From the NCBI RefSeq assembly GCF_003334335.1, contig NZ_QOWQ01000023.1: a stretch of 64,000 nucleotides of DNA. One strand, given 5' to 3'. The notes below the pieces were generated by a model, which saw nothing but the letters and a program-made list of their open reading frames with translations, ran no database searches and was not told the DNA's origin. Position numbers and translations under genes: made by a program. Of the stretch, positions 54,367 to 56,553 are shown piece by piece (the first letter of the stretch is position 1; every line of letters begins with the position of its first letter). Origin of the DNA: Escherichia coli (GTDB taxonomy: Bacteria > Pseudomonadota > Gammaproteobacteria > Enterobacterales > Enterobacteriaceae).

Positions 54367-56553
54367 ATGATTACTCGTATTCCTCGTAGTTCTTTCTCTG
54401 CAAATATTAATAATACAGCCCAGACAAATGAACACCAAACCCTGAGTGAATTGTTTTATAAAGAACTCGAGGATAAATTTTCTGGCAAGGAGCTGGCGAC
54501 GCCTCTATTAAAAAGCTTCTCAGAGAACTGTAGACAAAATGGTCGTCATATCTTTAGCAACAAGGATTTTGTCATTAAATTTTCCACGTCCGTCTTACAA
54601 GCTGATAAGAAAGAAATTACGATAATTAATAAAAACGAAAACACGACACTTACTCAAACCATTGCCCCAATATTTGAAAAATACCTAATGGAAATTTTAC
54701 CTCAACGCTCAGACACTCTTGACAAACAAGAATTAAACCTAAAATCAGATAGAAAAGAAAAAGAATTCCCAAGAATTAAACTTAATGGTCAATGTTATTT
54801 TCCGGGGCGACCCCAAAACCGTATAGTATGCCGACACATTGCTGCACAATATATTAATGATATTTATCAGAATGTTGATTACAAACCCCATCAAGATGAT
54901 TACTCTTCAGCTGAAAAATTTCTCACGCACTTCAACAAAAAATGCAAAAACCAGACTTTGGCGTTGGTTTCCAGCCGTCCTGAGGGGCGTTGCGTTGCTG
55001 CCTGCGGTGATTTCGGGCTAGTTATGAAAGCATATTTTGACAAGATGGAATCAAATGGCATCAGTGTTATGGCAGCCATATTACTGGTGGATAACCATGC
55101 TTTGACGGTCCGGCTAAGAATAAAGAACACAACTGAAGGATGTACCCATTACGTGGTTTCGGTTTATGATCCTAATGTAACTAACGATAAAATAAGAATT
55201 ATGAGCGAAAGCAAAGAGAATATTAAACACTATTCTCTGATGGATTTTATGAATGTAGATTATAGCCTCCTGAAATGGTCAAATGATCATGTTATTAATC
55301 AATCTGTTGCAATAATTCCAGCACTTCCGAAAGAACAGCTATTGATGTTAAAAGGATCTGTGGATGAAATAACCCCTCCATTATCACCTGCAACGATGAA
55401 TTTGCTAATGGCAATTGGTCAGAATCACCAACTTACGCAACTGATGATTCAACTCCAGAAAATGCCAGAACTACATAGAACAGAAATGTTGACTGCCTAT
55501 AATAGTATTAACCTGCCAGGTTTATATTTGGCTATAAATTATGGTAATGCGGATATCGTTGAGACTATTTTCAATTCATTGTCAGAAACAGGATATGAAG
55601 GATTACTCTCGAAAAAAAATCTCATGCATATTCTGGAGGCAAAAGATAAAAATGGTTTTTCTGGATTATTTTTAGCGATATCACGTAAGGATAAAAATGT
55701 TGTAACCTCGATTCTGAACGCCTTACCTAAACTGGCCGCAACACATCATTTAGATAACGAACAAGTGTATAAATTCCTGAGTGCCAAAAATAGAACGTCC
55801 AGCCATGTTTTATACCATGTTATGGCGAATGGTGATGCCGACATGCTGAAAATTGTTTTGAACGCGTTATCTTTGTTAATTCGCACATGTCATTTGACTA
55901 AAGAACAGGTACTCGATCTCCTGAAGGCAAAGGATTTTTATGGTTGCCCAGGACTATATCTGGCGATGCAAAATGGACATAGCGATATCGTGAAAGTTAT
56001 TCTTGAAGCATTGCCCAGCCTAGCCCAGGAAATTAACATTTCAGCTTCCGATATTGTAGATCTTCTGACCGCTAAAAGTCTTGCGCGCGACACGGGTTTG
56101 TTTATGGCCATGCAGCGCGGACATATGAACGTTATTAATACTATTTTTAACGCATTACCCACTCTGTTTAATACGTTTAAATTCGATAAAAAAAATATGA
56201 AGCCCCTCCTCCTGGCAAATAATTCTAATGAATATCCCGGTTTGTTTTCAGCGATACAGCATAAACAACAAAATGTTGTAGAGACGGTTTATCTTGCTTT
56301 ATCTGACCATGCACGCCTGTTTGGATTTACCGCTGAAGATATTATGGATTTTTGGCAACACAAAGCCCCACAAAAATACTCTGCCTTTGAGTTGGCTTTT
56401 GAATTTGGTCACCGGGTTATTGCTGAATTAATCCTTAATACATTAAATAAGATGGCTGAAAGCTTTGGCTTTACGGATAACCCTCGATACATTGCGGAGA
56501 AAAATTATATGGAAGCTTTACTCAAAAAAGCATCTCCCCATACCGTACGCTAA
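54367..56553 (+). CDS. arpA: ankyrin-repeat protein ArpA (YjaC), 728 aa, AT-rich
   Basis: C-terminal half has about 7 ankyrin-like units at ~46-residue period ([63 protein letters not shown] ...). Confidence 0.8.

Follow-up and report, generated by a model that had tools for sequence, protein, structure and literature searches.

In a 64,000-nucleotide stretch of Escherichia coli DNA (RefSeq assembly GCF_003334335.1, contig NZ_QOWQ01000023.1; hereafter the window), the genes arpA and aceK run towards each other and their coding sequences share 32 bp at their 3′ ends. How did this overlap arise, and is it of consequence for either gene? The original prediction, made from the letters of the window, held that neither gene has room for its own terminator, that the two transcripts must read into each other with possible antisense interference, and that the overlap fits a later arrival of arpA beside aceK. 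We find that E. coli carries two alternative states of this junction, which differ in the C-terminus of AceK, and that one end of a low-GC island carrying arpA lies inside the overlap itself. We consider it highly probable (roughly 0.85) that the overlap is the neutral scar of one old insertion.

The sequence around the overlap is K-12-like, with 99.9-100% identity to E. coli K-12 records, and the gene order is metH (minus strand), iclR (plus), arpA (plus), aceK (minus), aceA (minus) and aceB (minus). On the plus strand, arpA (RefSeq name espL4; positions 54367-56553) encodes 728 amino acids (aa) from an ATG start and carries the RefSeq product label 'ShET2/EspL2 family type III secretion system effector toxin'; precomputed Pfam hits place PF07906 (ShET2) in its N-terminal part and identify ankyrin repeats (PF12796), it matches no NCBIfam hidden Markov model (HMM), and its open reading frame (ORF) represents a protein cluster with 11,592 member sequences. 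Opposite to it lies aceK (56522-58258, minus strand; 578 aa, ATG start), the gene of isocitrate dehydrogenase kinase/phosphatase, which matches NCBIfam NF002804 with 944 bits. Both aceK and iclR (53226-54050, plus strand; identified by RefSeq and NCBIfam) pass the NCBIfam equivalog cut-offs.

The predicted convergent overlap agrees exactly with the ORF list, the translations and the RefSeq annotation. It covers 56522-56553 on both strands (TCAAAAAAGCATCTCCCCATACCGTACGCTAA) and joins two intact opposite-strand ORFs, both conserved and with recognizable families, so that the pair belongs to the convergent overlapping protein-coding genes. ArpA ends in ...KKASPHTVR with a TAA stop at 56551-56553, and AceK ends in ...SVRYGEMLF with a TGA stop at 56522-56524; the shared stretch spans aceK codons 569-578 plus stop, and arpA codons 718-728 plus stop. 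The identical 32-bp overlap is annotated in every arpA-carrying strain that we opened (K-12-like, O157:H7 and others). Both the overlap, as part of the standard annotation, and the arpA polymorphism are already known; our additions are small, namely that the terminal codons of each gene derive from the other gene's DNA and that AceK has two lineage-specific tails.

To determine how widely this junction is conserved, we compared it among complete E. coli genomes. A 1.1-kb query across the overlap found matches in all 5,426 of them, and 4,085 also covered its arpA side; the remainder matched by megablast only from query position 545-548, which corresponds to 56544-56547 of the window. With a 92-bp query centred on the overlap, coverage was ≥ 80% in 3,975 of the 5,426 genomes and identity ≥ 99% in 3,781. 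The arpA-plus junction is thus present, nearly invariant, in about 73-75% of complete genomes, and about a quarter are arpA-minus. E. coli Nissle 1917, a phylogroup B2 strain, shows the arpA-minus pattern with the 92-bp query. In two arpA-minus genomes that we opened, iclR and aceK stand tail-to-tail with their stops 16 bp apart, and AceK has 574 aa and ends in ...RFSVRFV, as against 578 aa in genomes with arpA; this was the comparison by which the original prediction proposed to check its insertion claim.

Other species share the arpA-minus arrangement. We scanned one genome per species, and among the matches listed 80 species other than E. coli had aceK; an arpA relative within 5 kb of aceK was found in 0 of these 80, and in nearly all of them iclR and aceK are convergent. 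A 574-aa AceK (...SVRFV) and an iclR-aceK spacer of 15-16 bp occur in E. albertii, E. whittamii and Escherichia sp. MOD1-EC7003, whose sequences align at the nucleotide level with the arpA-minus state of E. coli. On this comparison of sequences the arpA-minus state is the ancestral one and arpA was gained later, because the same spacer and AceK terminus occur in the outgroups and a deletion would not rebuild a stop codon and a spacer. The junction and the overlap are identical in every arpA allele that we examined, namely the 728-aa forms of K-12, O157:H7 and the divergent AST85 and the 524-aa form of SOI121. Together with the ≥ 99% identity in 3,781 genomes, this argues for a single insertion event.

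The boundaries of the inserted DNA could be placed closely. The arpA island (54058-56543, about 2.48 kb), in which arpA is the sole ORF, is missing in roughly one in four E. coli genomes and in each of the 80 other species listed. Its left breakpoint, found by direct comparison with an arpA-minus sequence, lies at 54057/54058, 7 nt past the iclR stop: the sequence is common up to ...GCTGACTTTTTC and diverges thereafter. The right breakpoint falls at 56540-56545, inside the overlap, as judged from nucleotide alignment and from the megablast starts given above; clear homology to arpA-minus genomes begins at 56544 (CGnACGCTAAA), and a possible 4-nt microhomology (ATAC, 56540-56543) blurs the exact point. 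Base composition changes at the same places. The GC content is 36.8% in the island versus 52.9% in aceK, with a drop from about 0.53 to 0.30-0.42 over 54060-56545. The island therefore has two hallmarks of a horizontally acquired islet: an atypical base composition, and presence/absence polymorphism with an outgroup-like empty site. Mobility signatures are lacking: the island shows neither a target-site duplication nor terminal repeats, direct or inverted, and no integrase, transposase or tRNA was found there. The arpA island is therefore not a classical mobile element and may have entered by illegitimate recombination. The empty site contains GCCTCTG, the inverse of a 7-mer (CAGAGGC) at the left end of the island; we judged this match to be chance.

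Within the overlap, the breakpoint divides the terminal codons of both genes. The aceK sequence is ancestral through R572 (56543-56545). Its codons 573-578 (YGEMLF) and the TGA stop (56522-56542, minus strand) are encoded by the island and stand in place of the ancestral ...FV-TAA, as alignment and translations show. Conversely, the last two to three arpA codons (..VR) and the TAA stop (56544-56553, plus strand) lie on ancestral aceK DNA. On the opposite strand this TAA corresponds to aceK codons F569-S570 (TTT AGC), and arpA-minus genomes and outgroups have it too.

These observations suggest the following sequence of events. In the ancestral layout, aceK and iclR would have stood tail-to-tail, 15-16 bp apart. 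One ancient insertion would have brought in the 2.48-kb AT-rich segment with arpA and its upstream region, replacing about 15-19 bp that comprised the last two aceK codons, the stop codon and the spacer. Each ORF would then have crossed the right junction to the first in-frame stop in its partner's DNA: aceK may thereby have gained six codons (YGEMLF) and a TGA from the island, and arpA would have come to stop at the pre-existing TAA antisense to aceK codons 569-570. Extensions of 21 nt and about 10 nt would together make up the overlap of about 32 bp.

We asked whether chance alone yields an overlap of this length. In a model in which both ORFs are read over the junction to the first in-frame stop, using the local stop densities of 0.059 per codon (island minus strand) and 0.041 (aceK antisense), simulated double read-through gave a median overlap of 105 nt, with P(≥ 32 nt) = 0.92. 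The observed 32 bp is on the short side of this distribution. Since the length is within chance expectation, it needs no selective explanation. Stop loss or replacement followed by 3′ elongation is the general model for prokaryotic tail-to-tail gene overlaps. The aceK/arpA pair resembles this model in that both ORFs run to the next stop in the partner's sequence and in that only a few codons are shared, at C-terminal ends under little constraint. It differs in that the trigger was probably an insertion that removed the aceK stop rather than a point mutation, and in that both partners would have been lengthened simultaneously, at one junction. The overlap is a textbook-style case of a stop-removing insertion creating a short tail-to-tail overlap, and matters little for biology at large.

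The AceK tail appears to tolerate such changes. AceK length varies from 573 to 628 aa across the Enterobacterales; the sequence past the motif RQRF[SC]VR[YF] is hypervariable, and the tails are unrelated to each other. Crystal structures 3EPS and 3LCB are of the 578-aa AceK, and chain A of 4P69 comprises residues 4-571, ending just before the RYGEMLF tail; this chain end is consistent with a dispensable tail, although it is no proof of one. The overlap is probably selectively neutral: AceK would tolerate it because its tail past ...RQRFSVR is free of constraint. The 3′ end of aceK is also crowded elsewhere. Convergent aceK-iclR overlaps of 4 bp, involving the stop codons, were found in 12 loci (including Buttiauxella, Cedecea and Shimwellia), and one of 47 bp in two loci (Enterobacter quasihormaechei and Pseudescherichia vulneris). 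Judged from these sequences, crowding of the aceK 3′ end by a convergent gene has occurred repeatedly and predates arpA. The arrangement in these other Enterobacterales is like that of aceK/arpA in that the same aceK end is crowded by a convergent gene; it differs in that the crowding gene is iclR, which encodes the repressor of the operon itself, and not a foreign gene.

Several points weigh against an origin of the overlap by neutral insertion. The island has no mobility signature that would explain how it was inserted, and the exact right breakpoint is ambiguous within about 5 nt. Three clustered substitutions at 56555-56558, 2-5 nt beyond the arpA stop, are not explained by a simple cut-and-paste event. 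Here all arpA-plus alleles read TCTT, arpA-minus E. coli and most outgroups CCGC, and E. albertii TCGC; the changes are synonymous for aceK (R568 AGA versus CGG, Q567 CAA versus CAG), and either the incoming DNA could have been slightly longer or the junction could have been reshaped later. The outgroup sample consists of the 80 species among the matches listed and does not include E. fergusonii or Salmonella, and that the overlap is neutral is something we infer. Finally, a loss of arpA's original stop is not distinguishable from an island that ended a few bases short of that stop. For a native arpA C-terminus, a word-indexed protein search returned E. coli alleles only, and an exhaustive search of 1.84 billion representatives for a native arpA 3′ end gave 798 relatives and no independent copy with an end of its own. 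Alignments with distant homologues reach no further than about residue 640-686, and all close fragments come from this same locus, so the original stop of arpA cannot be reconstructed.

The junction is also the target of a typing assay. The Clermont quadruplex-PCR primer ArpA1.r (PMC4322292, Table 1) has an exact site at 56533-56552 (plus strand), wholly within the overlap, and its partner AceK.f has one at 56913-56932 (minus strand); the resulting amplicon, 56533-56932, has the published length of 400 bp and identifies the feature as the Clermont arpA locus. In that scheme, an arpA-negative genotype is typed B2. The K-12 aceK/arpA overlap and the Clermont arpA marker are the same thing as the feature described here, with no difference. 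ArpA1.r straddles the breakpoint between island and aceK, and for this reason it discriminates between the two states. The anatomy of the junction at base level thus explains the specificity of the PCR, and the polymorphism concerned ranks with the markers most widely used in E. coli epidemiology. The claim that arpA is a later insertion beside aceK is borne out more strongly than it was put, by a breakpoint inside the overlap and a differing AceK C-terminus.

With regard to transcription, we see no termination at the overlap itself. In MG1655, the dominant aceK-strand Term-seq 3′ end maps to 4218963(+), with an intrinsic terminator score of 5.9, and belongs to an Hfq-dependent 'aceK int' RNA (Adams et al., 2021; PMC7815308). 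This position equals 57891 of the window, where it coincides with a strong intrinsic terminator predicted within aceK, 367 nt into the gene (57891-57920, minus strand; hairpin 57920-57899 and T-run), and with the published premature termination of aceK. The same study lists none at the aceK stop in three conditions, and none for the sense strand of arpA. Its Supplementary file 2 lists a Rho termination region at 4220399(+), 'antisense to arpA' (Rho score 3.0, p = 2e-8), which derives from DirectRNA-seq with and without bicyclomycin in 800-nt windows and is of coarse resolution. In the window it corresponds to ∼56455 (approximate region 56440-56470, minus strand), about 67 nt past the aceK stop; the C/G ratio in the first 80 nt past this stop is only 1.42. 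The arrangement resembles known Rho termination of antisense transcripts that enter AT-rich acquired genes, as aceK lacks an intrinsic terminator at the overlap and has a bicyclomycin-sensitive boundary about 67 nt into arpA antisense, with the difference that the boundary here comes from one low-resolution genome-wide data set. These data suggest that aceK transcripts which reach the end of the gene would run antisense into arpA and that Rho would stop them roughly 70 nt past the stop codon.

The pair aceK-arpA is one of 165 convergent transcript overlaps that ExcludonFinder detected in half or more of 58 RNA-seq sets from MG1655 (PMC12288877). The prediction that the transcripts must read into each other hence holds for the aceK strand, given the Rho region in arpA antisense, this listing and the lack of a hairpin at the overlap. 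That there is no room for a terminator was too strong, because termination can and does occur inside the neighbouring gene and the dominant aceK-strand 3′ end lies within aceK itself. In BL21(DE3), the ratio AceB:AceA:AceK is about 0.3:1:0.003, with premature termination in aceK, and arpA is disrupted and not expressed (PMC5435950). As both partners are very weakly expressed, the effect of the putative antisense interference is probably minor. A genomic-SELEX site for RpoS, 'aceK > arpA < iclR 4220334' (PMC5493296), was not used here; it is apparently given in older MG1655 coordinates and would then lie near the arpA 5′ end.

Could the overlap instead be a functional convergent 'excludon', in which complementary RNAs and polymerase collisions make the expression of aceK and arpA mutually antagonistic, and which selection has kept? 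Apart from the catalogue entry, this would fit the extension of the aceK-sense transcript into arpA antisense, limited by Rho (PMC7815308), the lack of a terminator at the overlap, and a junction that is nearly invariant in 3,781 genomes. Like the excludons of the Listeria paradigm and of the E. coli catalogue (PMC12288877), aceK and arpA are convergent genes with overlapping transcripts; here, however, the coding sequences themselves overlap, which makes the transcript overlap trivial. It is unavoidable once both genes are transcribed, so that the catalogue entry adds little. Moreover, both partners are very weakly expressed: AceK reaches about 0.003 of AceA, the dominant mapped 3′ end falls 367 nt into the aceK gene, and BL21, in which arpA is disrupted, shows no arpA expression. 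The overlap does not exceed the length expected by chance, and the near-invariance of the junction fits recent common descent. The literature that we searched contained no reciprocal expression or RNase III data for aceK-arpA. We therefore regard a selected excludon as unlikely.

A second way in which the insertion could matter concerns AceK itself. Two C-terminal forms of the protein occur naturally and follow phylogroup; it is the 578-aa, island-extended form that was used for the crystal structures and for most of the biochemistry. The YGEMLF tail of the arpA-plus phylogroups (FV in B2/F-type strains and other Escherichia), or convergent transcription from arpA, which is probably silenced by H-NS, could alter the level or activity of AceK. 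Because AceK is scarce and sets the isocitrate branch point, such a change, if real, could matter for acetate metabolism and may contribute to differences between phylogroups in acetate/glyoxylate-shunt metabolism. Nothing in our data indicates that the tail or convergent transcription affects AceK dosage, and we rate this proposal as unlikely.

The reverse history, with arpA-plus as the ancestral state and arpA-minus strains produced by deletion, has in its favour that presence and absence alone give no polarity and that arpA is decaying in some lineages (the 524-aa allele, frameshift variants, and the disruption in B strains). It would nevertheless have to explain why arpA-minus E. coli share the spacer and the ...SVRFV terminus with E. 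albertii, E. whittamii and Escherichia sp. MOD1-EC7003, since a loss of arpA by deletion would not restore the stop and spacer of the ancestor. It also conflicts with the foreign base composition of the island and with the finding of arpA at this locus in 0 of the 80 other species among the matches listed. The outgroup-like empty site effectively refutes a deletion origin, which we consider very improbable.

Convergent E. coli genes are often separated by a bidirectional terminator, and the A6/T6 run at 56525-56530 raised the possibility that a shared intrinsic terminator, a hairpin flanked by an A-tract and a T-tract, is hidden in the overlap. No GC-rich hairpin lies beside this run. A terminator pattern scan of 56400-56700 yielded nothing but one weak site, upstream within aceK, and RNA folding of both strands at the overlap was no better than that of shuffled sequences (minimum free energy z-scores of −1.08 and +1.30). 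In an Rfam scan of 53000-59000 (by E-value), no match fell near 56522-56553, and only REP/naRNA4 copies at 58280-58513 were reported. In three conditions Term-seq records no transcript ending at the aceK stop, and the 3′ boundary is instead sensitive to bicyclomycin. Scan, folds and published 3′ ends all argue against a bidirectional intrinsic terminator, and its presence is scarcely credible. That the overlap is an annotation artefact, with a wrong stop or one gene a pseudogene, is no more credible: arpA lacks an NCBIfam HMM, is poorly expressed and is decaying in some lineages, yet both stops are unambiguous in the sequence, crystal structures of the 578-aa AceK exist and the 728-aa arpA ORF heads a cluster of 11,592 member sequences.

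Having weighed these alternatives, we retain the neutral scar of one insertion as the most probable explanation of the overlap. Rare single-base indels in the A6/T6 homopolymer shift both tails: rare arpA variants (545 aa, or fragments) enter aceK antisense in another frame, the 545-aa forms ending at the TAG at 56615-56617. A single-base indel within the A6 run could account for their sequences and would also alter the last residues of AceK; most of these variants were seen once and may reflect sequencing errors in the homopolymer. An arpA allele of 524 aa (strain SOI121; cluster of 4,354 member sequences) is common; it has lost about 204 ankyrin-region residues in frame and keeps the C-terminus and the overlap. 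Another arpA protein cluster has an internal duplication. The gene appears to be evolving loosely.

In strain AHB24, a segment with a recombinase and phage-tail genes truncates aceK; independently, strain PM7 carries an IS1A insertion at the locus, under the match. A record titled Edwardsiella ictaluri ATCC 33202 (contig00205) has AceK and IclR 90-92% identical to those of E. coli, compared with about 75% for the Yersinia and Serratia loci of the same scan, and thus far closer than expected of Edwardsiella; contamination or a mislabelled contig is possible.

Two hairpins flank the left end of the island. One, terminator-like, lies in the last iclR codons (54028-54057), has a T5 run directly past the stop and is kept in arpA-minus genomes. 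The other, in the first bases of the island (54063-54084), has a 7-bp stem (GGGCAGA...TCTGCCC) and is not followed by a T-run. At the other end of aceK, two full REP/naRNA4 copies and a partial one (RF02564; 58280-58513, minus strand) fill the spacer between aceA and aceK. In the loci that we opened this spacer measures about 124, 182, 215, 280 or 313 bp, which suggests that the copy number of REP elements varies upstream of aceK.

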